From an uncultured bacterium (GTDB lineage: Bacteria; Bacillota_I; Bacilli_A; RFN20; CAG-826), in NCBI GenBank assembly GCA_949297805.1, contig CASFTG010000003.1, positions 3,996 to 67,995 on the forward strand: a stretch of 64,000 bases of DNA, given 5' to 3'. The translations under genes were made by a program, and so were the position numbers. Positions 6,469 to 59,990 of this stretch are shown here, in pieces; within the stretch, counting starts at the first letter, position 1, and each line of letters starts with the position of its first letter. The notes beneath the pieces are model-generated. The model had not been told where the DNA came from and searched no databases. It was given only the letters and a program-made list of their open reading frames with translations.

Positions 6469-8763
6469 ATGGTAAAAACCTTTAAAAAGGGTCTGCTGAT
6501 GGCATTAAGTTTCGCCTTCCTTGGCGGCTTAGCCTCCTGCGGACCGACCGATTCGACGAGCAGCACGCCGCCCGAATCGACGCCGCCGACTACCGAAACC
6601 GATTTGCCAAGCCAATCCGAATCTTCTGAGGAAGAAACGTCGGATAGTTCTTCCTCCTCTTCTTCGAAAGAAGAACTGAAGATCGAGTCGGTTTCCATTA
6701 CCAACAAAGATACCGTCAAGAATATCCTCGTCGAAGAAGGGGCGACGGTGACCGCCGAAGCTATGCCTTCTTCGATCCCCCAGGAATTCACTTATGCCTC
6801 AAGCAACGAGGAAATCATCACCGTCGACGCGATGGGGCGGATAACCGCCATCGCCCCTGGCACCGCCACCCTGACCGTCAGTTGTAGTTATGGCGGGGTC
6901 ACTAAATCCGATACGGTCGAGATCACCGTCACCAACACCTTCTTCTCCCATTCCCCCGTCGGGATGGAACTGGCCGACTTCACCCATGAGCTTGATGAGA
7001 CCAACCCCTATGTCGTCTACGGGGGCGGCGGCTTCATGTTCTTTAGAAACTGCTTCGGGACCACTTGGTATGCTGAGACCGATATCACCATCGATGAATT
7101 CGCCGTGGGCGAGCTCTTTGCCAAAGTCGGCTTAATGGGGACCGATTTCCACGATCAAAACGGCCTTTATTACTTCTTCGATTGCCCGCTTGGCGACAAC
7201 AACGTCTTGATCGATAACTGGAAGGCGGTCGGGGTCAATGACCGGATCAACGGCAGCTATGACATTGGCCAATTCAATTGGAATCTCGTCCATACTCTGA
7301 CTGCCGAGGAAATGGGCATCACCGATGGCGAACCCTGCCTCCGTTATGGGGATAAGTTCAATATGGGCTTACTTCGGGATGGCGCCTATTTCCATTTCTA
7401 CTTCAACCATTATTACGTCTACTCGGTGAAGTCGACCTTACTAGATCCGAGCATCCCGACCTATCCTTGCTTCACCGCCAATAACGTTACCGCGACCCTT
7501 TCGAATTACTCCTTCCTGGAGGAGGGCGATCCGAAGCTTGATGAGTTGCTGGCGACCGCCAATGCGGTGACCTCCCCGAAAACCATCACCATCGACAAAG
7601 GGAGTGAAGCCACGATGTCGATCGATGAGGAAGGGTATCGGGTCCGGGCGACTGTCGCCTCGGCGACCACCAACAATTGCGTCGAGACCGGCGTCACTTG
7701 GGATTCCTCCGATAAGACCGTCGCCACCATCGATGACCGCGGCTATATCACTCCGTTAAAGGCCGGCGATACCACCATCACCGCCACCTCCGCCTATCCT
7801 TATAGCGAGGCTAAGGCCACCTTATTGCTCCATGTCATCGAAGGGGCGGTAGCTTCGGAAATCCAAGCCCCGACGACCCTTTCGGTCCACGATACCGAGA
7901 CCAAGGCGCTTAACGCTTCGGTCTTGCCGGTCGGGGCTGACAGCCGTTTAACCTACACCAGCGCCGATCCGAGCATCGCCAAAGTCGATGCCGAGGGCAA
8001 TGTCACCGGCGAAAAGGCCGGGACTACGACCATCACCATCGCCTCGGTTCAGGTTCCTTCGCTTAAGAAGACGGTTGAGGTCACGGTGTCCGAGTCACTT
8101 ATCTCCTATCAGGTTCCGTCTTATTGCCCGAAGGGCGATATCCCCAACCTCGATTATTCCCATATGGACGATGCCGAGGATCCTTATGTCAAGGTTAGCA
8201 TGGCTAAACCCGATGGATTTGAAGGCGGGGCCTACTTCGCTTTGAACCGTTCGGGCACCAAATGGATGACTACCTTCTCGTTTGAGAATGTCTCTTTCTA
8301 TCACGGGGAAGTGTGGGGCAAGCTCTTCATTTCGGCCAATACCGCCGACGGGAAAGCCGGTTCCTTCTTCTTCGTCGATGCTGTCCTCAATGATTCGACG
8401 AAAGGCGGCTGGACCGATATCGGCTGGGCCAACTGGACTGGCACGACCGCTGAACAATATACCGTCGGGGCTAGTTTCAAGGATGGCCAAGGGGTTATTC
8501 CTGCTGGCTGGCGGAATGTTGAGAACGTCCCATCTGGCGGTAGCGCCAAATCCCCGGTTTTTGGCTTGATCCGGGATGGCGTCGACTATTACTTCATGAT
8601 CGATGGGGAAATCGTTTTCCATCGCCAGATGAATAACGTCGCCGCTGACGTCGCCTCGGTTCCCGTCATCGGCGGGTTCCAGGCCGCCATGGAAATCCAT
8701 GACCTCTCCTACACCGACGACGCGGCCACCATCGATGGCTTAGTCGCCGAATTCAACGCCTAA
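6469..8763 (+). CDS. Surface lipoprotein with bacterial Ig-like (Big_2) domains
   Basis: Lipobox LASC followed by an S/T/E-rich linker. There are two or more Big_2-like segments (e.g. ...ITAIAPGTATLTVSCSYGGVTKSDTVEITVT and VTGEKAGTTTITIASVQ). Function unknown. Confidence 0.7.
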   Translation: MVKTFKKGLLMALSFAFLGGLASCGPTDSTSSTPPESTPPTTETDLPSQSESSEEETSDSSSSSSSKEELKIESVSITNKDTVKNILVEEGATVTAEAMPSSIPQEFTYASSNEEIITVDAMGRITAIAPGTATLTVSCSYGGVTKSDTVEITVTNTFFSHSPVGMELADFTHELDETNPYVVYGGGGFMFFRNCFGTTWYAETDITIDEFAVGELFAKVGLMGTDFHDQNGLYYFFDCPLGDNNVLIDNWKAVGVNDRINGSYDIGQFNWNLVHTLTAEEMGITDGEPCLRYGDKFNMGLLRDGAYFHFYFNHYYVYSVKSTLLDPSIPTYPCFTANNVTATLSNYSFLEEGDPKLDELLATANAVTSPKTITIDKGSEATMSIDEEGYRVRATVASATTNNCVETGVTWDSSDKTVATIDDRGYITPLKAGDTTITATSAYPYSEAKATLLLHVIEGAVASEIQAPTTLSVHDTETKALNASVLPVGADSRLTYTSADPSIAKVDAEGNVTGEKAGTTTITIASVQVPSLKKTVEVTVSESLISYQVPSYCPKGDIPNLDYSHMDDAEDPYVKVSMAKPDGFEGGAYFALNRSGTKWMTTFSFENVSFYHGEVWGKLFISANTADGKAGSFFFVDAVLNDSTKGGWTDIGWANWTGTTAEQYTVGASFKDGQGVIPAGWRNVENVPSGGSAKSPVFGLIRDGVDYYFMIDGEIVFHRQMNNVAADVASVPVIGGFQAAMEIHDLSYTDDAATIDGLVAEFNA

Positions 8764-12821: not shown

Positions 12822-14699
12822 ATGAAACCGAAAACAACCTTGTTCCCCTTATTGGCGGCCTTCGCTCTAGTTGGCCTTGCCGCCTGCGGGAACACCCCGA
12901 GTTCGTCGAGCTCGACCCCAGTGGCGCAATCGACTCCGGAGTCGACGCCAACCACCGCCCCGACTCCCGATTCCCCTTTGACCCCGATGCTAGAGGAACT
13001 AAAGGCTGGCTTTGCCTTGACCGGTATCATCGATGAGACCCAGGTCTGGACTTATAATGATGGGACCACCAGCAATACCCGGAACGCCCGGATCGTCGAA
13101 AGCGAAGCTATCGAAGGCTATGCCCATATCGAGAAGTATTCCGCTGCCTATGCCCAAGACGGCAATGACCCGGATGAGGTCTTGACCCCGAATAAACTCA
13201 ATCTTTCGTATGAGTATCGGTTTGCCGCCAATCCGGCGGCGGGGCAATTAAGCCAAGTCGAATTAGGGGCTGATAACCAACTCCGATACAACAACATCGT
13301 CGATAGCTCGACCAACGAGACCTTGGTTTGGGATGAGACCTTTGCCAATCCCTTTGCCTTGATGACCGCCGATATGTTCGAGGTTGATCCGAATGATGGT
13401 TCTCGTTATCACATGGATACCGACAATTATCTCTATGAACCGATCCTCCGGAGATTAGCCCACTATATATACGGGGAGCCAAACGACTATATCGTCGAGG
13501 AACTTGACCTTATCGTGAAGGATGGCCATATCGTCACCTATGAAGGGAACTTCGCCGATTATGATTACACTGGCTTCGTCTATACCTCGAAGATCAAATT
13601 CGAAGGGGATGTGGAGGCTTATGGGGCCGATGTCACCGAGGCTCCAAGCGTTGTCGATGGGGCTGAGATACCCGAGCTGAAGGCGGCCCTCGAATCGCTA
13701 AAAGGCCATAACTACACGGTGGTGACGGAAGAGATGAGCACCGATTGGGACGGCAATCCCGTCAGCACCTTCTATAAAGGGCTAAGCGATGGCGGCGACC
13801 ACATCCACCAATTGAATTACGTCGGCGATATCGAAGATAACGTCACGAGCGACCAATACCTCTATACCCAGCTTTCGGAAGAAGACAGCTGGGCCGAAGG
13901 CGGGATCGCCTACGATACCCAGATCGCGACCAACATCAAAGGGACTTGGTATGCCTTTGGTAGTCTAGTCGAGGATATGAAGCTGACCAGAGACCTATTG
14001 CCGAGCTTTGAGATCTCCACCGTCCTCTTTGAAGAAGGGGATGCAGAAGGGACTTATGTCTTAAAGAAGAACCTACCCGATTATTTCGTTGGCATTAGCA
14101 GTGGTCTCTATTCCCTCTTCACTGCGAACGATGCCGGAGCCTTGACCATCGATATCAATGATGATCGGGTTAAGTTCAGTTTGACCGCCGCGAGCAGCTA
14201 TGGCTCGAACGAGGTGACGACCTTCACCGATATTGGGACAACGACGATTGCTAATACCACGGTGGTTACGGATGATACTAACCTCACTAAATGGGAGGAC
14301 TACTTCGTTAACCAAGCGACGGTGGATTCGGTCTTAGCCGTTATCCCGAGCAATGTATTGAACTATGTCCCTTTGCCTAAGCTTCCGGATGGGGGATACG
14401 ACGGCAACCTCACCAGCGTGGGCGTCTATACCGATACCAACGTGGTCCAACTTCAGATTAGGCTGGATCAGTATGGGGATAACGTCGATGCTCAGTATGA
14501 GGATCTGTTGGTTCTTATCACGGCTGGACTCATTGAGAATGGGTTTGCCTTAACGAGCCTTGATCCGTGGTACGGATATACCTTTACGAAGGATGAGACC
14601 ATCAATGGTAAGGAGATGACCCTGACTATCTCGTTAGGGGCTAGCGGCAACTACTTCTTGGTCGACTTCGAACTAGCTGAGAAGACGGCTGAAGCCTAA
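12822..14699 (+). CDS. Lipoprotein, function unknown
   Basis: Signal peptide plus lipobox LAAC, then an S/T/P-rich linker. Total 625 aa. SD AAAGGAG lies upstream. A long 460-bp leader precedes it. Confidence 0.75.
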   Translation: MKPKTTLFPLLAAFALVGLAACGNTPSSSSSTPVAQSTPESTPTTAPTPDSPLTPMLEELKAGFALTGIIDETQVWTYNDGTTSNTRNARIVESEAIEGYAHIEKYSAAYAQDGNDPDEVLTPNKLNLSYEYRFAANPAAGQLSQVELGADNQLRYNNIVDSSTNETLVWDETFANPFALMTADMFEVDPNDGSRYHMDTDNYLYEPILRRLAHYIYGEPNDYIVEELDLIVKDGHIVTYEGNFADYDYTGFVYTSKIKFEGDVEAYGADVTEAPSVVDGAEIPELKAALESLKGHNYTVVTEEMSTDWDGNPVSTFYKGLSDGGDHIHQLNYVGDIEDNVTSDQYLYTQLSEEDSWAEGGIAYDTQIATNIKGTWYAFGSLVEDMKLTRDLLPSFEISTVLFEEGDAEGTYVLKKNLPDYFVGISSGLYSLFTANDAGALTIDINDDRVKFSLTAASSYGSNEVTTFTDIGTTTIANTTVVTDDTNLTKWEDYFVNQATVDSVLAVIPSNVLNYVPLPKLPDGGYDGNLTSVGVYTDTNVVQLQIRLDQYGDNVDAQYEDLLVLITAGLIENGFALTSLDPWYGYTFTKDETINGKEMTLTISLGASGNYFLVDFELAEKTAEA

Positions 14700-14706
14700 T
14701 TGATTA

Positions 14707-14743
14707 ACCACCGGTTGAAAGGGAACAGCCGGTGGTTTTTTTG
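14707..14743 (+). terminator. Rho-independent terminator downstream of the lipoprotein gene
   Basis: Hairpin CCACCGGTTG-aaagggaa-CAGCCGGTGG followed by TTTTTTT. Confidence 0.7.
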
Positions 14744-14848
14744 TATAGGTTTGTACAAAAGAACTGTTCGCTGGGCTTGGTTGCTTACAGTTATGCGATG
14801 AGTCGGTATGTTTGTTTGAAGGTACTCCAATGCCTTCAAGCGTATCTT

Positions 14849-15655
14849 CTAGTGGTTCGAATTCTTTGTTAGGAAATCACGGACCTTTGAATAGTTATCG
14901 ATTTCGATAGTTAATCCGAAGACAAAGGCCAACAAAACGTATATAACGGTAGTGTAGTAACGATACCGGCATTCGGACATCTTTTCGCCATTTTCCGTCC
15001 AATTTTTCCGTTCATTAAGCTTGTTGATCTTATCGATTACTAATGATGGGTGTTCCATGACATTATTCGAATCGAACTCATGTTGGTTGTAGTCCAGGAA
15101 TTTTAATGCCAAGGATTCGAAGTTTCGCTGAATATATTCCATGGTGTTGCAACCGTGGGTGGCCTCGTGATGTACGTTTAAAGGCGCTTTGTAGTCTTTC
15201 GTGAATGAGCGGAAAACTTTTTCTTGTCCGAGTATCGCTGCTTCATCGCCGATTACTTCAAAACAAGGCGAACTAATAAGGAGCAGGCCCTCCGACTCGT
15301 CGTTGAATTGCCCAAACATTGTTGACAAGTCTTCTTTATCATTGTGATCGACATCGAAAAGCAAAAATATTCCACGGAAATTCAATTGATTCAGATGAAA
15401 GAATCTTTCGATACTATCGGTGTTTTTATTGAACTTCGTGACGACATCATGAATTCGGCTCTGAGCGGATTGGGCGATGTAAATCGTTTTACCGGAGTCG
15501 TTGCTTAGTTGTTCGATTTGAAAGTCTTTAATCGAGTCAAAGCTAAATTTAGGAGTAATCCGCATCTTAAAGCCATATCGCTGAAAAACGGCTGATATAA
15601 CATTGACTTCTGCCTTTTCGCCTTCGACGATTAGCAGGTAACGGCTATTACTCAT
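14849..15655 (-). CDS. RloB-like (Toprim-like) protein, partner of the AAA_21 ATPase. Has an unusual C-terminal hydrophobic segment
   Basis: N-terminus YLLIVEGEKAEVN and a later LLFDVDHND match RloB-family hallmarks. Its ATG (15655-15653) overlaps the ATPase stop (ATGAGTAA). A predicted TM lies near the C-terminus (TTVIYVLLAFVFGLTIEI). The gene is AT-rich. Confidence 0.6.
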   Translation of the reverse strand: MSNSRYLLIVEGEKAEVNVISAVFQRYGFKMRITPKFSFDSIKDFQIEQLSNDSGKTIYIAQSAQSRIHDVVTKFNKNTDSIERFFHLNQLNFRGIFLLFDVDHNDKEDLSTMFGQFNDESEGLLLISSPCFEVIGDEAAILGQEKVFRSFTKDYKAPLNVHHEATHGCNTMEYIQRNFESLALKFLDYNQHEFDSNNVMEHPSLVIDKINKLNERKNWTENGEKMSECRYRYYTTVIYVLLAFVFGLTIEIDNYSKVRDFLTKNSNH

Positions 15656-16802
15656 CTGATTTCTTGATAGCCTCGTCGAACATTGAGCCTAGATACATTT
15701 TCTCGATGTTGTTGACTTCCCGAATATTGGGGTAAATGTTAGACAAGCGTAGGAGGGTTGAAAAACCGCGTTCCCATTTGGCGAAGTATATTTGATCGGG
15801 ACGGAGATAACGCATGGCGCTGGTGTTGTGACAGGAGAACACCAACTGGATTTTTTTGTCTCTCGCAACTTCAATGAAAGATTTAATGGTGGAAGGGTGA
15901 AGGGCGATATCGAGTTCGTCGATAAAGAAAACCGATTGTTGGGGCAACGACGTCAATATTGACAACAACAAGGAAGCGTTTCGCATTCCGTTGCTGATAA
16001 ACTGGAACCGTAGTTTCTCTTTGAAACCGTCATTGTCTTCGAGGACGATGTAATACTGATTGCCTAACAGTCCATTTGGCGACTTATTGTCTTTTTCGAT
16101 GGAATAGATTGGAAAATCATTGAACGTTGATAGGATCTTCTTTACGTTGCTAGATTGTTTAACAAGCAAATCGAAGATGTTTTGATTGAGGTAAAATTTA
16201 GAGGTAACGAATCCTCCTTGGTTGATTCGCGAGACATCGGCATGGACGAAGGAGGTTAGGTAAGAGAAAACGGTTTGAATTACTCCGTCGGTAATTTCGC
16301 TGCTGGCTAGTCGGCGAAGGAGCAATACCAATGGCGAATCATTTGGACTTAGGGTTCGCCTTTCCCCGTGGTAAAAGTAGTTTTGGCCTTTGCGCTCAAA
16401 CACGACGTCTTGGCCTTTGGCTAGCCGCTCGTGTGTAATGCCTTGGTTGGTAGAGGTGGCGACGATGTACTCAAATGTTGATTTGTCTAAATCGAATTGA
16501 ATGCTAATGGATCCAATTAAGCAGCTTGGATCCGGATTTTTCCTTGCGGTATATTGGCTAAAGAGCATGTCGTTGACCACGAAAGGGGCGAGTTGCTCGA
16601 CCGGATTGACCAATAGACTGATAAACTGGGCGATGGCGTTAAGGAAAGAGGATTTTCCCGATCCATTGTGACCATAGATGGCGACGGGGTTTACGGCATC
16701 GCCTAATATGTTTTCCCCTTCGTATTGGTAGTTGGCCTTGGTGAAATCCAAGGTTGCAACACCGATGGAGAAGATGTTACGAACAGTAATTTTCTTAAGC
16801 AT
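15648..16802 (-). CDS. AAA_21-type ATPase (RloA/abortive-infection-like ABC-fold ATPase)
   Basis: Walker A GHNGSGKSSFLNAI near the N-terminus and Walker B/D-loop FFIDELDIALHP near the C-terminus. The start is at 16802 (MLKKITVRNIFSI) with SD GAGGAAA 4 nt upstream. The longer frame from 16832 is probably not used. Confidence 0.7.
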   Translation of the reverse strand: MLKKITVRNIFSIGVATLDFTKANYQYEGENILGDAVNPVAIYGHNGSGKSSFLNAIAQFISLLVNPVEQLAPFVVNDMLFSQYTARKNPDPSCLIGSISIQFDLDKSTFEYIVATSTNQGITHERLAKGQDVVFERKGQNYFYHGERRTLSPNDSPLVLLLRRLASSEITDGVIQTVFSYLTSFVHADVSRINQGGFVTSKFYLNQNIFDLLVKQSSNVKKILSTFNDFPIYSIEKDNKSPNGLLGNQYYIVLEDNDGFKEKLRFQFISNGMRNASLLLSILTSLPQQSVFFIDELDIALHPSTIKSFIEVARDKKIQLVFSCHNTSAMRYLRPDQIYFAKWERGFSTLLRLSNIYPNIREVNNIEKMYLGSMFDEAIKKSDE

Positions 16803-17251
16803 AATTTCCTCGGTGTATATTTTATACAGCAAGGAAAATTAATACAAGGTGGCGCATTTCCGATTAGTATTTGCTAAAAATAAATTCTTAAAACTATGAG
16901 TTATGTCTTGACATTTATTGCGGGGGATATTTGTGAGTGTCTAAACTGAAGCGAAAATACGTTGATTTAAAGAGTTAAGTCCGTTTTAGAAGTCACGTCC
17001 TGCCCGACCCCTCGGTGCTATCGGATTAGGCTCGGCGTCAGCCTAACCTCGTCCGGCTTGATGAATCGGTACCTGTATAGGCCAGGTACCTTTTCAATGA
17101 GGAACGTTTTGGCCGAGATGCCTGGGCGGGTCAGGCTGAGTTTATTCCTGGGGTCGGAGCAGTAAAGCGGGACGGATTTTCAAAATAAATCGCCGATACC
17201 ATAATTTAGTCAATCAATGTATAGTTTTGTCGTGCCTAAAGGAAGAAAGCA

Positions 17252-18007
17252 ATGAACGATTATGGTTTAGTCAGCATCATCATGCCTTTGTATAACTATG
17301 GCCGGTTCCTTAATGCCGCCGTCGGGAGCGTCCTCTCTCAAACCTATATCAATTGGGAACTCATCATCGTCGACGATTGCTCGACCGACGATTCCTTTGA
17401 GGTTGCGGAAGAGCTATCCAAGAAAGATGAGAGGATACACGCTTATAGGCTGGAGAGAAATGGGGGAACCTCGGCGGCTAGGAACAAGGGGTTGGATTTA
17501 GCCAAGGGTGAGTTCGTGGCCTTCCTGGATTCAGATGATCAATATGATCCGACCTATTTGGAATCTCAGTTAGATTTGCTTATCAGTAACAACGCCGACA
17601 TCGCGGTTGCTAGTTATCGGCGCAAGGCGGCTCAGTCCACGACTGATTTCATCGTACCGGACGTCATCGACTTCAAGTCGATCCTTAAGGGCAATCCCAT
17701 GGCCCCGCTTGGTACCTTATACCGTTTCTCGAAGTTCAGGGATCTGCGGTTCCACTTGGATATGCGGAAGTGCGAGGATTACGTCTTTTTCCTGAACTTG
17801 TTCCAACTAGGGGCGGTCGCTGTTCCTAATAAAGCTGTCCTCGGGACCTTGAATATCCACGAGGATTCCAAATCCAAGAAGAAGCTGAAACTCATCAAAT
17901 GGCAATACCGGTCATACAAAGCCGTTGGCGTCAATTGGTTTATGCGCTGGTATTATCTATTCTGCTGGGGCGTTTACGGGATGAAGAAGTATCGGAACGT
18001 GAAGTAA
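17252..18007 (+). CDS. Glycosyltransferase family 2
   Basis: VSIIMPLYNYGRFLNAAVGSVLSQTY…IIVDDCSTDDS…FLDSDD (DXD). This is a GT-A fold signature. Confidence 0.85.
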   Translation: MNDYGLVSIIMPLYNYGRFLNAAVGSVLSQTYINWELIIVDDCSTDDSFEVAEELSKKDERIHAYRLERNGGTSAARNKGLDLAKGEFVAFLDSDDQYDPTYLESQLDLLISNNADIAVASYRRKAAQSTTDFIVPDVIDFKSILKGNPMAPLGTLYRFSKFRDLRFHLDMRKCEDYVFFLNLFQLGAVAVPNKAVLGTLNIHEDSKSKKKLKLIKWQYRSYKAVGVNWFMRWYYLFCWGVYGMKKYRNVK

Positions 18008-20716: not shown

Positions 20717-21062
20717 AGATTGAATCCTATCACAGATTTTCTATTGTTTTCTAACTATCAATATGCTGTGCAAATGCTGCACGCTAAGATAAATACGATT
20801 TTCTAACATAGGGCGGGAAATTGGCCGGTTCTCATCGGCTTCATAGCGAATAATAACATCTTTCTTTCGCTTAATCACTTCAGTCCAACTTTGTACTGCG
20901 TCTAGTATTGGAGTTTCTATGAGTTTTGCCAAGTATTAGGCTTATTAAGGGAGACGCTTAAGTCCGTATTTTCTTTGGATTCAGGCGCTTGTTATGGTTT
21001 TGACTTCGCAATTAAACGCTAGCAGGGTATCGACCGGCGAAATTTGTTTGATTTAAAGGCGC

Positions 21063-21200
21063 AATCAATCAATGTATAGTTTTGTCGTGTCTAGAGGAAG
21101 TAAGCAATGAACGATTACGGGCCCGTTACATCATCTCTTTGCATAACTTTTGCCGGTTCCTTAATAACGCCATCGGCATTAATTGGTTCACGCGGTTGCA
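21063..21200 (+). pseudogene. Decayed duplicate of the promoter-proximal region plus first ~20 codons of the GT2 gene at 17252 (gene fragment)
   Basis: Near-identical string TCAATCAATGTATAGTTTTGTCGTG(C/T)CTA(A/G)AGGAAG(A/T)AAGCAATGAACGATTA(T/C)GG… appears at 17211-17290 and 21063-21150. The downstream similarity (…GCCGGTTCCTTAAT(G/A)(C/A)CGCC(G/A)TCGG) carries indels that break the frame. Confidence 0.65.
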
Positions 21201-25438: not shown

Positions 25439-28400
25439 TTGATAGGACTTCCCACTGCAACCCTAGCCTTTAGGCTATATAATTTCCTCGCTATGCCAAT
25501 CGACCAACTCAATAATCCAACTTCTAGTGACAAGATCTACCTTGATATCGAATCCTCTAAGTCCATCTGCTACGTTAACTATCGGGCGGAGAAACTGATC
25601 AAGATCCGCCGTTCTTCCAGTAAGTCCAATATCTTTTCCTTTATCAAGCGGATCTCGATCAAGAACTTCACCGATAAGGATGTCTATAACGCCTATCTCC
25701 ATTTCAACTTCCATTCCGAATCCATCGCCATCGATGATGTCCCTCTTTCGTGCTTGCAAGCCCACAAGATAACCACGGTCGATAGCTTTAACCTGATTCT
25801 TGATCCGAAGTATCTTTATGACCTATCGGAGGTCGAAGCCTTAACCGTTTCTATTTCTCTGATTGGCGAAGACAACGAAACCATCGAATCCAAGAACATC
25901 GATATCCGGTTATTGCCCATCGCCCAATCAGCCGGCGAGGACTTCGTTCCCGAATCGATTGCCTCTTTCATCACGCCCAATGACGATGAGGTTCAAGAGT
26001 TGGCTAATAAAGCCGCCTATATCATGGAGGATAAGTATCAGACTTCTTCTTTCGTTGGTTATCAGACTCATGATCCCGAAACCGTCATGCATGAGTTGGA
26101 TGCCTTATACCTAGCCCTCCAACAATCGGGTATCCATTATTCCAATCCCCCGGCCTCTTTCGAAAAGACTTTCCAAAGAGTCCGGATGCCGAAAGATGTC
26201 ATTAACGATAAGACTGCCACCTGCTTAGATTTCTCTTTGCTATTTGCCTCTTTATGTGAAGCGGTAGGGCTAAATCCCTTACTTATCGTTTTGAATGACC
26301 ATGCCTATAACGGGGTCTGGTTAGAGAACCTCCATTATCCGAATGCCATCTTCGATAACCTGACTGTTTTATCTAACGATTGTTCGGATACCGATCGCCG
26401 GATGGTCTTAATCGATTCGACCAATGCGGCCTCGGGATCGGATATCAACTTCCAGGCGTCTTTATCGAAGGCGGCTGCCTTACTTAACGTTGGCAAATTC
26501 GATTACTGCCTTGACGTTAAGACCGCTCGTCTCGACTATATCCTCCCTTTGCCGACCCCTCATACGGTTAATGGCAAGACCGAGGTTAATTATGATGACA
26601 CCATCGGGACTGAATACGATGTCCCGACCGTTGCTCCTTCCTCTGGGTCATTGTCTTTAGAGTCCAAAGGCAATAAGACTAAGTTCGATGTTTGGGAAGA
26701 GAACCTATTGGATTTGGAGATGAGCAATAACCTCATCAACCATAAGATCGGGGCCTCCTCCGTTCAATTAGGTGCGGACGATGTCTTCGATTTCTATTCC
26801 CGAGCTAAAGACATCGATAAGTTAAGCGTTATCCCCGACAATGATCTAAAGGCCGAGGACCTTAAGCATTTCCTCGCCTTCCAATTTTCCATTGAGGATA
26901 AGAAACGGTTCAAAGGGGCCTTTGCTTCAAAAAGGGTCTATGCCTTCAATAAGAAGGGAGAGACCGAGGATACATTGATATCTTTAGCCCGGAAGGCCTC
27001 GACCCAAATCGAGGAAAGCGGGTGTAACCCTCTCTTTTTAACTCTCGGTATGGTCCATTGGTATGACAATAACTTATCCAAGCAGACCATCGCTGCCCCG
27101 ATTATTTTGATCCCGGCCTCCATGCCCAAGCGGCGTTCGGGTCCCTATTTCTCCTTAGAACTCGACTTTGATTCGGCCCAGGTCAATGCCGCGGCCTTTG
27201 AATACTTCCGTCGGGCCTTCGATATGGACTTCTCCGAGCTCGATGGTTTCTTCGACACTGAACGTTCGGTCGATGATTTAAAGAAACTATTCAATACCAT
27301 CCGAGAAAAGATTGCTTCTAAAGGCAACTGGATGGTCGATGATACGACTGTAACTTTATCTTTATTCTCCTTCGCTCACTTCGTCATGTGGAATGACATG
27401 AAGACCCATCGGGATCTATTTATTCAAAATAAAGTCGTGGCTTCGATGGTCCATGGGAAAGAGGAATACGACACCACCCCGAAGGAACTATATGAGAACA
27501 ATCTCGATGATATCATCGCCCCCGATGATTTAGCCGTCCCTTTAAGCGCCGATTCCTCCCAACTATTGGCCATTAAGGCCTCGGATATTGGCCTATCCTT
27601 TGTCCTTGATGGTCCCCCGGGGACCGGCAAGTCCCAGACCATCGCCAACATCATCGTCAACGCGATGTATAAGGGGAAGAAAGTATTGTTCGTCGCGGAA
27701 AAAGAAGTCGCGTTGGATGTCGTCAAGAACCGATTGGATTCTTTGTCCTTGGGTCGTTTCTGCTTACAGATCCATTCGGCCAAAGCCAATAAGAAGGATG
27801 TCTTAGCTCAATTAGGGGAATCCTTAGCCACGGGACAAACTAGATCGGTTGAAGGGTTCAACGATGAGGCTAAGAAGCTAAAGGATGAACGGGATGCCTT
27901 GAACGCGACCTTAAAGGAGATCCACGTAAAGGGCAATTACTTTGTTTCGCCCTATACCGCGTTGATTAAGTACTTAGAGAACGAATCGTCCAAAGGCAAC
28001 TGCGAGGTTTCGTCCGACTATGCCAAGGCCATCGATGAAAAGAAGTATAACGAAGCCATCTCAACCATCGAGGATATTGTCGTTCTCGGCCATAACGTCA
28101 ATGGGTATTATGGCAGCCCCTTCATCTATTATGGCTGCCGGGATTACTCGTTGGATTTAAGAGAACAATTCCAAGAACGGTTGCCATCCTTGATCGCCGC
28201 CTTGGAATCGTTCTCGGCTGCTTATACCTCCTTATCCAAGAAGATCGGCTTTGGGATGAAGTTATCGAAGAACAACGCCAATCGCTTGGTTTATATCCTG
28301 AATCTGATCAAGGCCGATCCGAAGTTGTTCTTCCCCGACTTAATCGAAGGGGGAACGATCCTTAACGAGACAGTTAACATCAAATCCTATTTCGATGGGT

Positions 28401-31276
28401 TATTGGTCTACTTGGCATTGAAGGAAGAAGTCGGCAAATCCTTTGAATATGGAGTATTGGAACTCGATGCCAGCGATCTTAAACGCCATCTAGAAAACTC
28501 CTGGAATTACGGGTTCTTTGCCAAGCGCAAAGCCATCAAGCAAACCAAAAAGGCTTTAAAGCCCTTTGCCAAATCCAAGATAAAAACCGGGGATTTGCAA
28601 CCAATTCTCGATAAACTCATCCTTCTCCGCCAAATGAAGGAGGATTTGGACAATCGGGCGGGGTATTGCACGATTATCTTCCCCGATGAGGATAAGAAGA
28701 CTTTGGTCGAGGCTCAGTTAGACCAGACCAAGATCAATAATAGTTTGGCCCTCTTAGATGCCATCCGCCATCTCGACGTCAGCGAGGATTCCGACTACAA
28801 GAAAGCCAACAAGGTCTTTGCTTCAATTATTCGTTCCCCTGACAAGCCATACGAAGAACGGATCGCCAACTTCCTTAATGGCGAAGCCGATCTAGTCAAA
28901 GCCAATAAAGAGTTGGAGGATATCCATTTTGACATCAATGCTGCGGATGATTCCGATGTCTATTACGCCTATGCCTTGACCCAGATCAAGAACTCCTATC
29001 AAGGGTTAGAGAGACTCGGTGAGTGGTGCAAGCTCTTATCTTGCTTAGATAAATCCGAGGCCGTCTTACCGAAGTCCTTAATCGATAATTACAAAGGCGG
29101 CAAGGTCAGCCTATCGAAGCTCCGTTCCTCCTTCGACTGCGCCCTCTTCTATCGGATCGTCTCCTTATCGCTTAGCGAACTGGGGCTTACTAACTTATCT
29201 TCTGCCGAGACCGAACAACAGATTGAGAAGTACAAGAAGGCTTTAGCTGCTTTCCAGCGGTTAACGGTTGAGGAGACGGCAAGAAGAATTACCGCCTCCT
29301 TCCCTCGGACTGATGTTGAATACGCCGAATCTTCTTTGGCTTATCAATTACGGAAACTCATCAAGACGGCGGGGCGGGGCAAGACCCTCCGTTCCATCAT
29401 CGACCAATATAGTGATGATATCTTTAGGCTATGCCCGATCTTCTTGATGTCGCCGTTATCGGTCGCCCAATATCTTGATCCGAACAAACATCATTTCGAT
29501 ATTGTTATCTTCGATGAGGCCTCGCAGATCCCGACTAGCGAAGCCATCGGGGCGATTGCTAGAGGCAACTCCTGCATCATCGCCGGCGATCAGCAGCAAA
29601 TGCCTCCGACCGACTTCTTCACCTCCTCCTTATCCTTCGCCGATCAGCCTAACGATGATGTCGTCGTCTACAGCGACCTCGAGTCCCTCCTCGATGACGC
29701 GATTGCTTTGAACCTTCCTCGTTATCGTTTGTCTTGGCATTATCGAAGCCATCATGAATCGCTGATTGCCTTTAGCAATAACCGATTCTATGACAATACC
29801 CTTTGCACTTTCCCCTCGCCTTCCAATCAGGAAAGCCAGGTTCACCTCGTTCGGGTCAATGGCCATTATGAGAAAGGACGAGGGGTTAATAGAGAAGAAG
29901 CCAAAGCCATCGTCAATGAGGTTATTAGACGTTGCAAGGACCCTGAACTCAGCAAGCTCTCAATCGGAATCGTCACCTTCAACAAGAAGCAGCAGGATCT
30001 CATCACCGATATGCTCGATTCGAAGTTTTTCTCGTCCACCAGCTTGAATAGAACTCCCGGCGGGGAAGAGATCTTCGTCAAGAACTTAGAGAACGTCCAG
30101 GGGGATGAAAGAGACGTCATCCTCTTCTCCGTTTGCTTCGGCCCGGATAAGAAGACGAAGAAGATGAATCTTAACTTCGGGCCCTTAAGCCGGGAAAAGG
30201 GAGAGAGACGGTTAAACGTCGCCGTATCAAGGGCTAAGGAGGAGATGGTCGTCTTCTGTTCGTGCCGGCCTGAGGACATCCGGGCCTACTCGGCCAAAAA
30301 CAGCGGCGCCGAGTTCCTCCGTTCCTTCCTCATCTATGCCGAATCGGGGGTCCGTTCCTTGGCCAATCAGTCGAGCTGGGATATTAAGCCCGAGGATTTA
30401 TCGATTGCTTCCTTCTTGGCCTCTGATTTGCTTCGTGATGGTTATCAAGTCGATATCAATGTCGGGGCCAGCGAGTTCAAGGTCGACATTGCCATCAAGG
30501 ATCCATTAGATCCTGACCGTTATGCTTTAGGGGTCTTAGTCGATGGGCCTAGTTATGCCTCGCCTTCTTATACCTGCGATGACCGGAATGTGGTGGCCCC
30601 GGGCGTCCTTAATAATCTTTCTTGGCGCTTAATGCGGGTTTGGTCGGTTGAGTACCTTGACCATCCGGGTTTAGTGGTTCGAAAGATTGAGAAGGAATTA
30701 AGCGCCCCTCGCTCCGCCACCGAGGTCAAGGAACAGGCGACCAAACCTGTCTCATTGGTTAAGGCGACTCCGGATAATCCCTATCCCCATAAGAAGGAAT
30801 ATCCGGCAGTTAACTATGCTCATTTAGTTAATATCATTCGCGATTTGCCGGGGGCGATTGCTGGGGTGTTAGCCAATGAATCACCCATCTCCATGACTCT
30901 TCTTAAGAAACGGGTCCGCGATATCTATTCCCTTAAGCGGGTTGACAACAAGATGCTGTATCGTATTCAGACGATCCTTAGACAACTTTCTGCTTATGGC
31001 GAAGAGTTCGATAATGAGATCTATTGGTGGGCCTCTTCCTTAGACCCTGAATCCTACGATGCTTATCGCGTTGGCGGTGACCGGGAGATTGGGGATGTAT
31101 CTAGACAAGAGATATTGTTAGCCAAAGATGACATCGAATTCTTGCAGGGTAAGATCAGCGATGAAGATTTATGCCATGAGATTTTAGAACTGCTCGGATT
31201 CAACGTTTTATCCGAAAGAAGCAAGACTCATATCGTTCGGGCGCTGAATGGGGATATTGGGGAGAAAGCCAATTAG
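25439..31276 (+). CDS. Giant multidomain protein: N-terminal region with a transglutaminase-like Cys/His signature, Upf1-like SF1 helicase (AAA_11/AAA_12), Vsr/DUF559-like endonuclease fold, C-terminal DUF3320-like region. Architecture is of the 'DUF4011 helicase' type
   Basis: Single 1945-aa frame. TGase-like CLDFSLLF…DHAYNGVWLE (~nt 26210-26325). Helicase motifs: I GPPGTGKSQT (27611-27640), II IVIFDEASQI (~29501-29530), then HYRSHHESLIAFSN, VTFNKKQQDLI, VQGDERDVILFS and LNVAVSRAKEEMVVFCS. Endonuclease-like segment VLVDGPSYASP…NLSWRLMRVWSVEY (~30520-30650). Start uncertain: TTG 25439 (weak AAAGG SD) or ATG 25493 (-10-like TATAAT just upstream). Confidence 0.8.
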   Translation: MIGLPTATLAFRLYNFLAMPIDQLNNPTSSDKIYLDIESSKSICYVNYRAEKLIKIRRSSSKSNIFSFIKRISIKNFTDKDVYNAYLHFNFHSESIAIDDVPLSCLQAHKITTVDSFNLILDPKYLYDLSEVEALTVSISLIGEDNETIESKNIDIRLLPIAQSAGEDFVPESIASFITPNDDEVQELANKAAYIMEDKYQTSSFVGYQTHDPETVMHELDALYLALQQSGIHYSNPPASFEKTFQRVRMPKDVINDKTATCLDFSLLFASLCEAVGLNPLLIVLNDHAYNGVWLENLHYPNAIFDNLTVLSNDCSDTDRRMVLIDSTNAASGSDINFQASLSKAAALLNVGKFDYCLDVKTARLDYILPLPTPHTVNGKTEVNYDDTIGTEYDVPTVAPSSGSLSLESKGNKTKFDVWEENLLDLEMSNNLINHKIGASSVQLGADDVFDFYSRAKDIDKLSVIPDNDLKAEDLKHFLAFQFSIEDKKRFKGAFASKRVYAFNKKGETEDTLISLARKASTQIEESGCNPLFLTLGMVHWYDNNLSKQTIAAPIILIPASMPKRRSGPYFSLELDFDSAQVNAAAFEYFRRAFDMDFSELDGFFDTERSVDDLKKLFNTIREKIASKGNWMVDDTTVTLSLFSFAHFVMWNDMKTHRDLFIQNKVVASMVHGKEEYDTTPKELYENNLDDIIAPDDLAVPLSADSSQLLAIKASDIGLSFVLDGPPGTGKSQTIANIIVNAMYKGKKVLFVAEKEVALDVVKNRLDSLSLGRFCLQIHSAKANKKDVLAQLGESLATGQTRSVEGFNDEAKKLKDERDALNATLKEIHVKGNYFVSPYTALIKYLENESSKGNCEVSSDYAKAIDEKKYNEAISTIEDIVVLGHNVNGYYGSPFIYYGCRDYSLDLREQFQERLPSLIAALESFSAAYTSLSKKIGFGMKLSKNNANRLVYILNLIKADPKLFFPDLIEGGTILNETVNIKSYFDGLLVYLALKEEVGKSFEYGVLELDASDLKRHLENSWNYGFFAKRKAIKQTKKALKPFAKSKIKTGDLQPILDKLILLRQMKEDLDNRAGYCTIIFPDEDKKTLVEAQLDQTKINNSLALLDAIRHLDVSEDSDYKKANKVFASIIRSPDKPYEERIANFLNGEADLVKANKELEDIHFDINAADDSDVYYAYALTQIKNSYQGLERLGEWCKLLSCLDKSEAVLPKSLIDNYKGGKVSLSKLRSSFDCALFYRIVSLSLSELGLTNLSSAETEQQIEKYKKALAAFQRLTVEETARRITASFPRTDVEYAESSLAYQLRKLIKTAGRGKTLRSIIDQYSDDIFRLCPIFLMSPLSVAQYLDPNKHHFDIVIFDEASQIPTSEAIGAIARGNSCIIAGDQQQMPPTDFFTSSLSFADQPNDDVVVYSDLESLLDDAIALNLPRYRLSWHYRSHHESLIAFSNNRFYDNTLCTFPSPSNQESQVHLVRVNGHYEKGRGVNREEAKAIVNEVIRRCKDPELSKLSIGIVTFNKKQQDLITDMLDSKFFSSTSLNRTPGGEEIFVKNLENVQGDERDVILFSVCFGPDKKTKKMNLNFGPLSREKGERRLNVAVSRAKEEMVVFCSCRPEDIRAYSAKNSGAEFLRSFLIYAESGVRSLANQSSWDIKPEDLSIASFLASDLLRDGYQVDINVGASEFKVDIAIKDPLDPDRYALGVLVDGPSYASPSYTCDDRNVVAPGVLNNLSWRLMRVWSVEYLDHPGLVVRKIEKELSAPRSATEVKEQATKPVSLVKATPDNPYPHKKEYPAVNYAHLVNIIRDLPGAIAGVLANESPISMTLLKKRVRDIYSLKRVDNKMLYRIQTILRQLSAYGEEFDNEIYWWASSLDPESYDAYRVGGDREIGDVSRQEILLAKDDIEFLQGKISDEDLCHEILELLGFNVLSERSKTHIVRALNGDIGEKAN

Positions 31277-43752: not shown

Positions 43753-45081
43753 CTAATTCAGCAAGCCGGCTAGATAGACCGGGAGATACAGGACCGATCC
43801 TTTCTCCTTGATATTCGCGGTGCTGAGGACGATGGCTTGTTTGATACCATAGTCCTGACTATCTAATAGATTGCATAGGGCCACGTGGCGGGCATAGTCC
43901 TTGCCGGATTTGACCTCGATTGGGATGACCTCGCCATTGTGCTCGAGGAGGAAATCGACTTCCCCTCTGGTCTTGTCGTTGTAGTAATAACCGCCCTTAC
44001 CCTTATTCAGCTCTTGGGCGACGAAGTTCTCGAAGATGGCCCCATAGTTGATGCTTTTCTCTTTCTTTAACAGTTTCGTCCGGGTCCCGGTGGAGGAGAG
44101 CATATATGAAAGCAAGCCGACGTCATTGGCGAAGAGCTTAAGCAAGGCCCGGTCATGGTTTCGGGTCAAGGGGATGGTGGGGGAGACGGCGTTGTAGATG
44201 GGGACGGCGATCTCGGCCTCATTCAGCCAGTCGACGTAGTCCCCAAGCCGCCTTTGCCCAGAACGGGATAAGGGCAAGGAGTTTAGGTTATAGCGCTTGT
44301 TCTTCTTATCGATTTCCGAGGCTAAGTTGGCATAGCAGCTGATGATGCCGACTTTGTCTTCGTTCGGGGCATAACGGGCCATGTCTCCAAAATACCCATT
44401 TATGATGTCGTGCTGAAGGCTGCTGACCTCGGCTAAGGAATGATTGGCCATATAAGAGGAGACGGCTTTGGGGGTGCCGCCGATGACGAGGTATTCATAA
44501 AGGTAATTCAAAAGCAGTTGATGGATCGGCTCGTCGATGGGCTGGCGAGTTGCGATGTTCTCCCGGAAGGATTCGAATAAGGAACGGTCAAATCCTTTGG
44601 CCAGGCAATATTCCTCAAAGTTTAAAGGGCCAAGATGAAACTCGGTTAGGTATCCGACGGGATAGGAGGCGATCTTTTGAAGAGCCACCCCCAAAGCCGA
44701 ACCGGACAGGATATAGGAGTAACGGCCATCGATGGCTAGAGCTTTAATCATGGTTAGGATGTCGAAGTCCTGGTAATCCTGGATCTCGTCGATGAAGATG
44801 AGGGTCTCGCCGGGAAGCAGGGGCGCATCGGCGCTAGCCTGCAGCCGTTGGAAAAAGGTTTCTTTTGAATGGCAGCCTTCGAAGATGGCGGCCCGTTCAG
44901 GATCGAGGATCCGGTTGTATTCGATGAAAGACTTAAAGCATTGCTTACCGATTTTCTCGATGGTGTGGGTCTTGCCGGTTTGGCGGGCCCCTTTAAGCAA
45001 GGCTGGCTTGCCTTTATTCTGGGCCCAGGCCCGGAGGTCGTCTTCGATAAGACGGGTCAATTCTTGGCGTTCCATGCCCAT
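43753..45081 (-). CDS. AAA+ ATPase of the DUF4143 (AAA_14-DUF4143, COG1373) family, copy 1
   Basis: P-loop GARQTGKTH and Walker B LIFIDEIQ. The C-terminal DUF4143 block (…GEVDFLLEHNGEVIPIEVKSGKDY…LYLPVYLAGLL) is paralogous to 58620-59990. Confidence 0.8.
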   Translation of the reverse strand: MGMERQELTRLIEDDLRAWAQNKGKPALLKGARQTGKTHTIEKIGKQCFKSFIEYNRILDPERAAIFEGCHSKETFFQRLQASADAPLLPGETLIFIDEIQDYQDFDILTMIKALAIDGRYSYILSGSALGVALQKIASYPVGYLTEFHLGPLNFEEYCLAKGFDRSLFESFRENIATRQPIDEPIHQLLLNYLYEYLVIGGTPKAVSSYMANHSLAEVSSLQHDIINGYFGDMARYAPNEDKVGIISCYANLASEIDKKNKRYNLNSLPLSRSGQRRLGDYVDWLNEAEIAVPIYNAVSPTIPLTRNHDRALLKLFANDVGLLSYMLSSTGTRTKLLKKEKSINYGAIFENFVAQELNKGKGGYYYNDKTRGEVDFLLEHNGEVIPIEVKSGKDYARHVALCNLLDSQDYGIKQAIVLSTANIKEKGSVLYLPVYLAGLLN

Positions 45082-58619: not shown

Positions 58620-59990
58620 TTAGATTAGGCCGGCCATGTAAATAGGCAAGTACAACGTGTCCCCTTCTGTTTTTAAATCTTTGCCATAAATGATGTATTT
58701 CTCCCCAATTCCCCGATTTTTGTATTTTTGCGAAAATATATCTAAGGAAGCATGCCGACTATAACTAGATGACTTTACCTCGATTGGGCATATTTTCCCG
58801 TTTTTTATAATCACAAAATCAATCTCATATTGTTTTTTAATATCTTCTCGGCTCTTTTTGAAGGTGTGATAATAAAGTTTGTGCCCGGAATTGATTAAAG
58901 CTTGTGCCACGGCATTTTCGAAGAACATCCCGTTGTTAGTTGAAAGATGATCAAAAATTAGACTTTTGTATATGTCGCCTGAGGTTTTACTTTCGGAATT
59001 CAATGCCTGAGTTACTAATAAGCCAGTATCCGAAGAATATATTTTAAATTGCTCTGGGATCACGCTTAAGCCCAACGCTATTTCGGGATTACTAATATTC
59101 CGACAGATATTGCCAACAAGCGACTTCTCTATGCCTTCAATCGTGTTTATTAGCGAGATATATTCGGCGCCTTTTTTAATTTGATTATAGCGAAAAGTTC
59201 TGTTTTTGTTGGAAAGATAAGATGGTATGTGTGAATAGACGGCACTGGTGAACGTTTTGTAGTCTCGATCGTATTTCCGCAGGTCGTCCTCGTAGATTTT
59301 ATTGATTGCCCGTTTGGTAGTGTCGACTTTTGAAAAGTTTACTTTATCGTTCAAATATTGATTTACTGCTTCTGGCATGCCACCGACGCACATATACATC
59401 CGGAAAGTCGCCATTATTTTCCGATGAACCGGGTAAGTTAGCGGAGTGCGTTTTTCTAGACAGTCACGTAGGAAAGGGTAGGTGACAAAATCGCCGTTTG
59501 CCCAGAGGAATTCTTCAAAGTCCATCGGATTCATTCGAATATTCATCACCTCGCTTGGATTGGTGAACCTTTTGCCAAGGAGCCTTAATGTGATAAGCGA
59601 ACCGGTCTCAATGTAATCATATCTTCCATCTTCTATTAGGTATTTCATTCCTTCATGAATCCGCGGGAATTTTTGAACTTCATCGAAAATAATTAATGAA
59701 TTTCGCGGATAAAGTTCTGTGTGGTAATATACCGATAGCCGGTTGAAAAGGGTATCTAGGTCGTCGAAACCGTCTTCGAATATTTCTTTGACAGGGTTTC
59801 CTACCTTGTCAAAATCGACGATGATGTAGGAACGATATTCGTTCTTGGCAAATTGTTCGACTATCGTGCTTTTGCCTACCCGGCGAGCCCCTTCTATGAG
59901 TAGCCCATAACTATGACTATAAGACTGCTTCCACTTTAATAAATCTTTGTAGATTTTTCTTTTGAATTGAAATTTAGATCCACGTTCCAT
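58620..59990 (-). CDS. AAA+ ATPase of the DUF4143 family, copy 2
   Basis: P-loop GARRVGKST and Walker B LIIFDEVQ. The C-terminal block YEIDFVIIKNGKICPIEVKSS…LYLPIYMAGLI is paralogous to copy 1. AT-rich. Confidence 0.8.
   Translation of the reverse strand: MERGSKFQFKRKIYKDLLKWKQSYSHSYGLLIEGARRVGKSTIVEQFAKNEYRSYIIVDFDKVGNPVKEIFEDGFDDLDTLFNRLSVYYHTELYPRNSLIIFDEVQKFPRIHEGMKYLIEDGRYDYIETGSLITLRLLGKRFTNPSEVMNIRMNPMDFEEFLWANGDFVTYPFLRDCLEKRTPLTYPVHRKIMATFRMYMCVGGMPEAVNQYLNDKVNFSKVDTTKRAINKIYEDDLRKYDRDYKTFTSAVYSHIPSYLSNKNRTFRYNQIKKGAEYISLINTIEGIEKSLVGNICRNISNPEIALGLSVIPEQFKIYSSDTGLLVTQALNSESKTSGDIYKSLIFDHLSTNNGMFFENAVAQALINSGHKLYYHTFKKSREDIKKQYEIDFVIIKNGKICPIEVKSSSYSRHASLDIFSQKYKNRGIGEKYIIYGKDLKTEGDTLYLPIYMAGLI

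Follow-up and report, generated by a model that had tools for sequence, protein, structure and literature searches.

Two overlapping minus-strand genes in the window (the whole stretch of DNA analysed, 64,000 nucleotides) are quite likely to form a defence cassette of the AbiL / PDC-M12 type, bicistronic and with coupled translation, that works by the mechanism proposed below. The upstream gene encodes an ABC (Rad50/SMC-type, AAA_21) ATPase of 384 aa resembling AbiLi and PDC-M12A (15648..16802), the putative sensor and probable antitoxin; the downstream gene encodes an RloB-like Toprim-fold protein of 268 aa resembling AbiLii and PDC-M12B (14849..15655), the probable nuclease effector and toxin. 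Judged by profile matches, the pair belongs to an already known kind of system.

Organization of the locus

The first-pass annotation had described a two-gene ATPase plus RloB-like module here, and both co-directional minus-strand ORFs were found as described (14849-15655, 268 aa, and 15648-16832). The most likely start of the ATPase is the ATG at 16802, because a GAGGA precedes it by 4 nt, M1 is invariant and the homologues are about 382-384 aa long; the TTG at 16832 is merely the mechanical limit of the longest ORF and was discarded. At the junction, which reads TCAGATGAGTAATAG, the TAA stop of the ATPase gene and the ATG start of the RloB-like gene share the 8 nt ATGAGTAA (15648..15655, minus strand), so that the overlap claimed earlier is present and translational coupling is predicted. 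Of 32 genome loci, 29 have the ATPase gene directly upstream of the RloB-like gene, and the same arrangement was seen in 7 loci retrieved through protein look-up. Overlaps of 4-17 nt, 18 of them exactly 8 nt long, are present in 30 of the 34 homologous loci, which suggests that coupling is a property of the family rather than a matter of chance.

The interval 16803..16860 (minus strand) holds, as read by eye, the ribosome-binding site GAGGA (16807-16811) and a possible extended -10 element, TGTATAAAAT, which may together serve the expression of the pair; a consensus scan flagged no minus-strand promoter in this interval. The intergenic region upstream of the pair (16803-17251) folds more stably than shuffled sequences (z = -3.5), in agreement with its earlier description as structured. 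Rfam yielded nothing credible, either in the whole window at gathering thresholds or in 16780-17270 at E <= 10, and a search of the window for tRNA and tmRNA genes was negative. The GC-rich element of the intergenic region is present once in the window and is absent from the fetched loci, and an exact-pattern scan of JGI metagenomes gave 0 matches. Two terminator-like hairpins lie between the convergent lipoprotein and RloB-like genes (14706..14842), one at 14706-14737 with 12 bp and a T-run on the plus strand and the other at 14813-14842; they may terminate the minus-strand transcript.

Properties of the encoded proteins

The two nucleotide-binding motifs ascribed to the ATPase, Walker A (GHNGSGKSS) and Walker B (FFIDELDIALHP), were both located in its sequence. 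The Walker A / P-loop codons G44-H-N-G-S-G-K-S-S52 occupy 16647..16673 and those of the Walker B core, F293-I-D295-E296, occupy 15915..15926 (both minus strand), the latter being followed by the D-loop and H302. Among 41 homologues G44, N46, G47, S48, G49 and K50 are invariant, as are F293, D295 and H302, and at least 90% of them share E296; the ATPase also carries the conserved tail YPNIREVNNIEKMYL. The ATPase matched Pfam AAA_21 with 58.9 bits (cut-off 27), the PADLOC AbiLi profile with an E-value of 1.9e-45 (153 bits) and the PDC-M12A profile with 5.3e-23 over profile positions 1-368 of 369. Its fold is of the Rad50/SMC/PtuA/AriA-like kind. By these features it is a compact Rad50/SMC-type ABC ATPase with an intact site for ATP binding and hydrolysis. 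In PHROGs it matched families of unknown function, where the RloB-like protein gave no match, and by sequence search neither protein has a relative in the PDB.

The 268-aa partner contains both of the RloB-like motifs reported for it, LLIVEGEKAE and LLFDVDHND. It matched the PADLOC PDC-M12B profile at 1.7e-9 over positions 6-199 of 251, with its last 68 residues uncovered, and AbiLii at 6.7e-6, a weak match over 47 of the 170 profile positions (29-75). Pfam RloB scored 24.5 bits; a match to an RloB/Toprim-like model thus exists, though under the curated Pfam cut-off of 31.5. Among the 41 homologues, 25 matched Pfam RloB and 22 matched AbiLii (E <= 0.01 in both cases), and 31 matched PDC-M12B. 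By its profile matches and motifs, the protein is classed as a divergent RloB-like protein.

E11 in LLIVEGEKAE (codon 15623..15625, minus strand) is invariant in the 41 homologues together with G12 and E16, and we take it, from the established Toprim motif, to be the Toprim catalytic glutamate. The codons of D101-V-D103-H104 (15344..15355, minus strand) encode the presumed metal-binding DxD motif, a reading that draws on conservation: D101 and H104 are invariant and V102 and D103 are present in at least 90% of the homologues. E120 and E133 are also among the invariants of Toprim type. The AlphaFold2 model is a single globular chain (pLDDT 89.5, pTM 0.89), and the protein shows the hallmarks of a Toprim-fold nuclease, with a conserved Glu following strand 1, a DxD motif and the alpha/beta Toprim fold. 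Foldseek comparison of the protein with the PDB yielded only Rossmann/GTPase-like similarities of a generic kind, at a TM of about 0.25, and these were disregarded.

The first-pass annotation had further regarded the partner as an atypical, membrane-anchored RloB, with a C-terminal hydrophobic helix that hinted at membrane association; in the corresponding model the protein is tail-anchored and acts at or on the membrane. A hydrophobic stretch does exist at residues 235-252 (TTVIYVLLAFVFGLTIEI, 14900..14953, minus strand); its Kyte-Doolittle maximum over 19 residues is 1.91 and its uncharged run is 18 residues, values that by themselves would suit an anchor. The model shows no long helix here, and within the subfamily such a stretch is nothing out of the ordinary. 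The segment belongs to YRYFTTVIYVxIAYxxGLTxEIDNY, the signature of the whole subfamily and its most conserved motif, in which R232, Y233, T236, V237, Y239, V240, A243, L248, T249, I252, D253 and N254 are each conserved in at least 90% of the 41 homologues; conservation at the level of single residues is more suggestive of core packing or of an interface than of a helix facing lipid. Across the homologues the uncharged run has a median of 13 aa, most carry N, E, H or K inside the segment, only 10 of 41 reach a Kyte-Doolittle 19-mer value of 1.6, and on the Hessa scale no 19-mer in any of these proteins has a negative insertion free energy. AlphaFold2 places a short strand, a 7-residue helix (239-245) and coil at residues 235-252, with pLDDT 96-97. 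A conserved helix that is predicted to insert and spans some 19 residues or more, as expected of an integral or tail-anchored protein, is thus lacking from the RloB-like protein, and a membrane anchor is hardly credible. On conservation and the structure model, the segment appears to be a conserved part of the soluble fold, its hydrophobic residues forming a core motif, and the anchor claim is rejected.

Genomic context and distribution

The direct neighbours of the pair are glycan genes, not defence genes. The GC content of the pair is 0.429, compared with 0.517 in the lipoprotein gene and 0.485 in the GT2 gene; the earlier remark that the pair is markedly AT-richer than its flanks therefore holds against the two adjoining genes but not against the window, where 23% of same-size windows have a GC content as low or lower (23rd percentile) and the following 20 kb, a polysaccharide locus, average 0.431. 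A MAG of the same species is about 99% identical up to position 13000 or so and 75-85% identical through the pair, and homology is gone past 16834. The pair lies in a strain-variable region. Two related MAGs carry it at the corresponding position, which indicates that it was not freshly acquired in this lineage.

Paired loci occur in Bacilli, Clostridia, Acholeplasmatales, Erysipelotrichaceae and Spirochaetes. The genes on either side of the pair bear no relation to one another from lineage to lineage, and at some loci the neighbour is an IS21 remnant, a phage-type integrase or a Fic gene. Homologous pairs from different phyla thus have surroundings that are unrelated to each other, rather than belonging to a chromosomal core of conserved synteny, and pairing with overlap in about 30 loci with unrelated flanks suggests a mobile cassette. 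A tblastn search of plasmids and phages returned just distant AAA ATPases (22-31% identity) and no close relatives, nor any match to a Lactococcus plasmid. The idea that the pair is generally associated with glycosyltransferase genes was checked and dropped: tblastn matched the glycosyltransferases of the window in 2 loci only (L001, L019). Three further loci (L037-L039) have Pfam-annotated glycosyltransferases.

Relation to known systems

AbiL and PDC-M12 are the only PADLOC models that match both proteins, where assignment means profile matches and not PADLOC's rules of coverage and synteny. AbiL (AbiLi/AbiLii, Lactococcus lactis plasmid pND861) is a two-gene lactococcal Abi system grouped with PARIS as ABC ATPase + TOPRIM (PMC13064643; PMC11464382). 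As in AbiL, two adjacent, co-directional genes encode the ABC ATPase first and the RloB/Toprim-like protein second; unlike AbiL, which resides on lactococcal plasmids, the present pair is found on the chromosomes of uncultured Bacillota and Spirochaetes from gut and rumen, and its second protein shares with AbiLii only the short, weak match given above. PDC-M12 is a PADLOC candidate for phage defence that was predicted by 'guilt by embedding' (bioRxiv 10.1101/2024.01.29.577857); both of its HMMs matched in adjacent genes, without PADLOC's own thresholds, while the end of the partner extends beyond the PDC-M12B match.

PARIS (AriA/AriB) differs in that the DUF4435 domain of AriB (PF14491) is absent here (none in Pfam at E <= 0.1), and no AriB model was among the PADLOC matches of the pair. 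In the OLD family and Gabija GajA (class 1/2 OLD) the ATPase and Toprim domains are fused, whereas here they are separate polypeptides, and the GajB/UvrD-like helicase of Gabija has no counterpart adjoining the pair. The TOPRIM_OLD(D44):AAA(D29) pair of Clostridium algidicarnis (NetFlax) is similar by description, having an RloB-homologous Toprim toxin (RloB node D44) neutralised by a neighbouring AAA/ABC ATPase; neutralisation of the toxicity has confirmed it as a toxin-antitoxin pair (PMC10440598). The view that such pairs have little experimental characterisation was overstated, given abortive infection by AbiL (1999), the validated AAA:Toprim toxin-antitoxin and the solved mechanisms of PARIS and OLD. 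The identification of the genes as an AAA_21 ATPase + RloB-like pair of defence or abortive-infection type is supported by the profiles; the membrane anchor attached to it is not.

Proposed function

Phage defence by abortive infection or as a toxin-antitoxin is the most likely role of the pair, which by analogy probably works like PARIS. The mechanism is modelled on PARIS, P2 OLD and the validated AAA:Toprim toxin-antitoxin pair. In the uninfected cell an oligomer of the ATPase would bind the nuclease and keep it inactive, coupled translation setting the ratio of the two proteins. A phage-derived signal sensed by the ATPase would then release or activate the nuclease, which would cut nucleic acid in a Mg2+-dependent manner, most likely tRNA or other RNA; translation would halt and the infection would abort. 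AriB and P2 OLD are tRNases (PMC12409363; bioRxiv 10.64898/2026.07.10.737580).

Stabilisation of the strain-variable glycan island by a type II toxin-antitoxin addiction module, rather than anti-phage activity, is an unlikely main role. Such a role would agree with the neutralisation assays on AAA:Toprim pairs and with the lack of positives when a related AAA-neutralised pair was screened against phages (PMC10440598), as well as with tight translational coupling, typical of toxin-antitoxin operons, and with the location of the pair right at the point where homology within the species is lost. One role does not preclude the other, however, PARIS being both (PMC13064643); moreover, the best PADLOC matches are Abi and defence-candidate models, and close relatives were not found on plasmids or phages, where addiction would matter most. 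Far less probable is an RloA/RloB-type accessory of type I restriction-modification or a housekeeping DNA-repair ATPase plus nuclease of RecF/SbcCD-like kind. RloB proteins were first noted within type I R-M operons (PMC10440598), and the ATPase weakly matches SMC_N, RecF and SbcC models, but no hsd, methyltransferase or Mre11/SbcD-like genes occur among the 32 larger ORFs of the window that were scanned, Pfam detected no R-M domains in the 30 of them outside the pair, unlike in RloAB loci, and NCBIfam gave only P-loop matches, all far under their cut-offs. Nor does a housekeeping role fit the patchy spread across phyla and the tiny size of the family (244 clusters at E <= 1e-3 among 1.84 billion representatives).

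Beside the assignment as an AbiL / PDC-M12-type cassette stands the rather improbable reading, a little less likely than the addiction module, that the RloB-like subfamily is a distinct effector class, possibly also exchanged within a 'phage receptor plus defence' variation island. The C-terminal half of the protein, with its YRYFTTVIYV...EIDNY motif, falls outside the AbiLii and Pfam RloB matches, and the strictly conserved module YRYFTTVIYV...GLTxEIDNY is covered by no existing profile match; a distinct class could have another substrate or another mode of docking to the ATPase than AbiLii or AriB. In this lineage the pair might also be exchanged by recombination as a single unit that takes in a variable surface lipoprotein, a variable polysaccharide locus and, embedded there, a helicase-nuclease of Hhe/PDC-S37-like type, and the region, if such exchange is true, would be a combined variation island for phage receptor and defence.

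Significance

No concept is changed by these results. Their main practical value is that the idea of a membrane anchor can be dropped and that the locus can be annotated as AbiL/PDC-M12-like. The compactness of the pair, the confident structure models of both proteins and the conserved catalytic residues make it convenient for biochemistry. If active, it would be a member from Gram-positive bacteria of the gut and rumen of the ABC-ATPase + Toprim defences (OLD, Gabija, PARIS, AbiL, MADS).

Gene organization

The pair consists of two co-directional genes on the minus strand, an ATPase gene at 15648-16802 (384 aa) and the gene of the RloB-like partner at 14849-15655 (268 aa). The longest ORF over the ATPase gene (15648-16832) begins with TTG; the start was set at the ATG at 16802, because homologues are approximately 380-384 aa long, residue 1 aligns with this ATG and GAGGA lies four bases 5' of it. 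At the junction the ATPase reads TCA GAT GAG TAA and the partner ATG AGT AAT AGC. The first-pass annotation had reported an overlap of eight bases, and reading the junction confirmed that the genes have ATGAGTAA in common; its four quoted peptide motifs were likewise all found in the two proteins. Among the loci examined, the overlap was 4-17 nt in 30 of 34 and exactly 8 nt in 18.

The ATPase

The assignment of the ATPase to Pfam AAA_21 stands, with 58.9 bits against a gathering score of 27, accompanied by weaker matches to SMC_N, AAA_15 and AAA_23. The top PADLOC defence models were AbiLi (1.9e-45) and PDC-M12A (5.3e-23) (nearly full length), followed by generic AriA, HEC-01A, mad3 and PtuA. 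In the 41 aligned homologues, Walker A (G44, N46-K50), Walker B (D295/E296), the signature (S270-G272-M273), Q176, H302 and H325 were invariant or nearly so, so that a competent ABC ATPase is expected. The C-terminal tail YPNIREVNNIEKMYL (residues ~356-371, window ~15690-15737) hardly varies among homologues, although their identity elsewhere is only about 50%; it is a candidate for the surface that contacts the RloB-like partner.

The RloB-like partner

RloB was the sole Pfam family found on the 268-aa partner; the expected RloB-like match was thus obtained (E 3.5e-5, profile positions 1-111 of 195), but at 24.5 bits it remained under the gathering score of 31.5. PADLOC matches were PDC-M12B (1.7e-9, profile positions 6-199 of 251) and AbiLii (6.7e-6, profile positions 29-75 of 170). 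RloB was matched at E <= 0.01 by 25 of the 41 partner homologues (best 4.8e-8), PDC-M12B by 31 and AbiLii by 22, and no other family occurred among them apart from three stray Pfam matches in single members. A glutamate together with a DxD pattern is the defining mark of Toprim domains. This pattern is present in the partner: among the positions invariant in the 41 homologues are E11 and G12 (both in LLIVEGEKAE), D101 and H104 (both in FDVDHND, where D103 is kept in at least 90%), E120 and E133. The AlphaFold2 model was confident (pLDDT 89.5, pTM 0.89). PH0156 (2P62) has been reported to be the top HHpred match of AriB, the effector of lactococcal PARIS (PMC11381338), which points to a tie between the partner fold and the AriB/OLD Toprim group; this structural support is moderate, not strong, because Foldseek and sequence searches of the PDB yielded nothing significant for the partner.

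The first-pass annotation had proposed that a C-terminal hydrophobic helix, unusual for the family, anchors the partner in the membrane. Residues 235-252 are indeed hydrophobic and borderline transmembrane-like in this one protein (Kyte-Doolittle 19-mer 1.91, uncharged run of 18). Far from unusual, the stretch defines the subfamily, belonging to its most conserved block (YRYFTTVIYVxIAYxxGLTxEIDNY), in which conservation is at the level of individual residues (R232, Y233, T236, V237, Y239, V240, A243, L248, T249, I252, D253 and N254). The uncharged run is 13 residues in the median homologue, with N, E, H or K in the middle; the Kyte-Doolittle threshold of 1.6 was reached by only 10 of the 41 homologues, and the insertion free energy of the best 19-mer, summed on the Hessa biological hydrophobicity scale, was positive in all 41. 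In the AlphaFold2 model (chain pTM 0.89) the segment forms two strand residues, a helix at 239-245 and coil at 246-254 (pLDDT 96-97), with no long helix. On these grounds the anchor was rejected, and we conclude that residues 235-252 probably belong to the packed core, or to an interface, of a protein that is soluble. The conserved block lies outside the partner regions matched by the Pfam RloB, AbiLii and PDC-M12B profiles.

Classification

Lactococcal AbiL, an abortive-infection system of two genes, has been placed in one group with PARIS, that of an ABC ATPase plus a TOPRIM/OLD nuclease (PMC13064643; PMC11464382). The pair agrees with AbiL in its AbiLi-type ATPase, gene order and adjacency; the AbiLii/RloB match of the partner is weak (AbiLii 6.7e-6; Pfam RloB sub-threshold). 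Both component models of PDC-M12 were matched. Membership in PARIS fails for want of a DUF4435 domain, and membership in OLD/Gabija for want of a fused protein and a GajB helicase. The locus is assigned to an already known kind, namely the AbiL/PDC-M12 branch among the defence systems that combine an ABC ATPase with a Toprim protein.

Occurrence

The partner subfamily is small, with 48 clusters at 90% identity in 5.8 billion proteins; a profile search among 1.84 billion representatives retrieved 244 of them at E <= 1e-3, of which 60 reached <= 1e-30. Genome matches came from uncultured gut, rumen and faecal Bacilli, Acholeplasmatales, Erysipelotrichaceae, Christensenellaceae, other Clostridia, Sphaerochaetaceae and Treponema ruminis. 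An ATPase homologue lay immediately upstream of the partner on the same strand in 29 of 32 genome loci and in seven loci from protein look-up. Conserved synteny, which had been named as evidence against a defence module, was not seen, the surrounding genes being completely different between lineages. Some loci carry beside the pair an IS21 IstB remnant, a Fic gene with a phage-type integrase, or DUF4143/AAA_14 genes; plasmid and phage collections contained no close relatives of the pair. The window itself has two AAA_14 plus DUF4143 ATPase genes (43753-45081 and 58620-59990, both minus strand), and such genes also lie no more than a few kb from the homologous pair in several loci that are unrelated (L001, L007, L010, L011, L021, L035 and L036).

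Genome context

The pair (GC 0.429) is AT-richer than its two immediate neighbours, the upstream lipoprotein gene (0.517) and the GT2 glycosyltransferase gene (0.485), as had been observed at first pass, but it is no compositional outlier: 23% of same-size windows have a GC as low or lower, and the values for the whole window and for 17252-38000 are 0.473 and 0.431. To the left lie a GH2 glycosidase, Big_2 proteins and a 625-aa lipoprotein (12822-14699, plus strand), and to the right a long polysaccharide-biosynthesis locus (GT2, Wzx-type flippase, GT4 genes, dTDP-sugar enzymes, Wzy-like protein). A scan of the 30 other window ORFs revealed no gene for an integrase, a transposase or restriction-modification.

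The intergenic region of 449 nt that precedes the ATPase folds more stably than shuffled controls (z = -3.5), which bears out the structured intergenic region noted earlier, though no Rfam family was matched. Within this region (16803-17251) lies a strongly folding GC-rich element of ~237 bp (16973-17209) with several hairpins (e.g., 17068-17090). The sequences on either side of it (16951-16972 and 17210-17265) recur at 21037-21058 and 21065-21120 with almost nothing between them, so that the element resembles an insertion. The element gave no Rfam match, no further copy in the window or the fetched homologous loci and no exact match in JGI metagenomes. The GT2 ribosome-binding site and first ~75 nt (17210-17325) are duplicated ~3.85 kb downstream at 21065-21176 (identity 93% and 83%); the copies enclose the GT2, flippase and GT4 genes and resemble the trace of a cassette exchange or a duplication in the polysaccharide locus. 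The same locus encodes a 1945-aa protein (25439-31276, plus strand) with DUF4011, an AAA_11/AAA_12 SF1 helicase and an MTES_1575 restriction-endonuclease-like domain, matching PADLOC PDC-S37 (5.8e-295) and Hhe (4.8e-131); its gene has a GC of 0.47-0.50, above that of the surrounding glycan genes (0.40-0.42), and it is a candidate second defence gene ~8.6 kb from the pair.

Between 4966 and ~13000, the window and the same-species MAG locus L003 (CASFQA010000002.1) agree at ~99% identity. From ~13200, a point within the lipoprotein gene, identity drops to 75-85% and remains at this level across the ATPase and partner genes; homology stops at 16834. L003 shares its lipoprotein and pair allele with a third MAG, L001, at 95% identity. 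Upstream of the ATPase both have an IS21 remnant that the window lacks; there, the IstB fragment together with a 150-aa ORF separates the ATPase from the glycan genes (L001 7616-8482, L003 ~7160-7964). Judging from these alignments, the pair is positionally stable in this lineage, yet inside a recombining, strain-variable segment running on into the variable glycan locus. The lipoprotein (11066-12946 in L003) has a lipobox LAAC and a Ser/Thr/Pro-rich linker, matched no PADLOC model and had no Pfam match. It is mosaic within one species, its first ~400 nt being ~99% identical to L003 and the remainder 75-85%, which places the recombination breakpoint inside the gene; the lipoprotein may be a variable surface protein.

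Proposed function

In Clostridium algidicarnis, an RloB-node Toprim protein is toxic and its AAA partner neutralises the toxicity (PMC10440598). In PARIS, AriB is sequestered by an AriA hexamer until a phage protein triggers its release (PMC13064643; PMC11464382; PMC12409363), whereupon it cuts tRNA (PMC12409363); P2 OLD is likewise a tRNase (bioRxiv 10.64898/2026.07.10.737580). For the pair itself, the analysis shows domain content, conservation of the catalytic residues, coupling and distribution. From the published findings above and those on AbiL, we infer complex formation, trigger, substrate and phenotype of the pair, the most likely working model being abortive infection: the ATPase would be sensor and antitoxin at once, the RloB-like partner a Mg2+-dependent nuclease toxin, probably an RNase, and translational coupling would set their stoichiometry. 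Activation would arrest translation and abort the infection. The remaining interest of the pair lies in its rare subfamily, in the conserved C-terminal module and in its location by other variable, phage-related loci.
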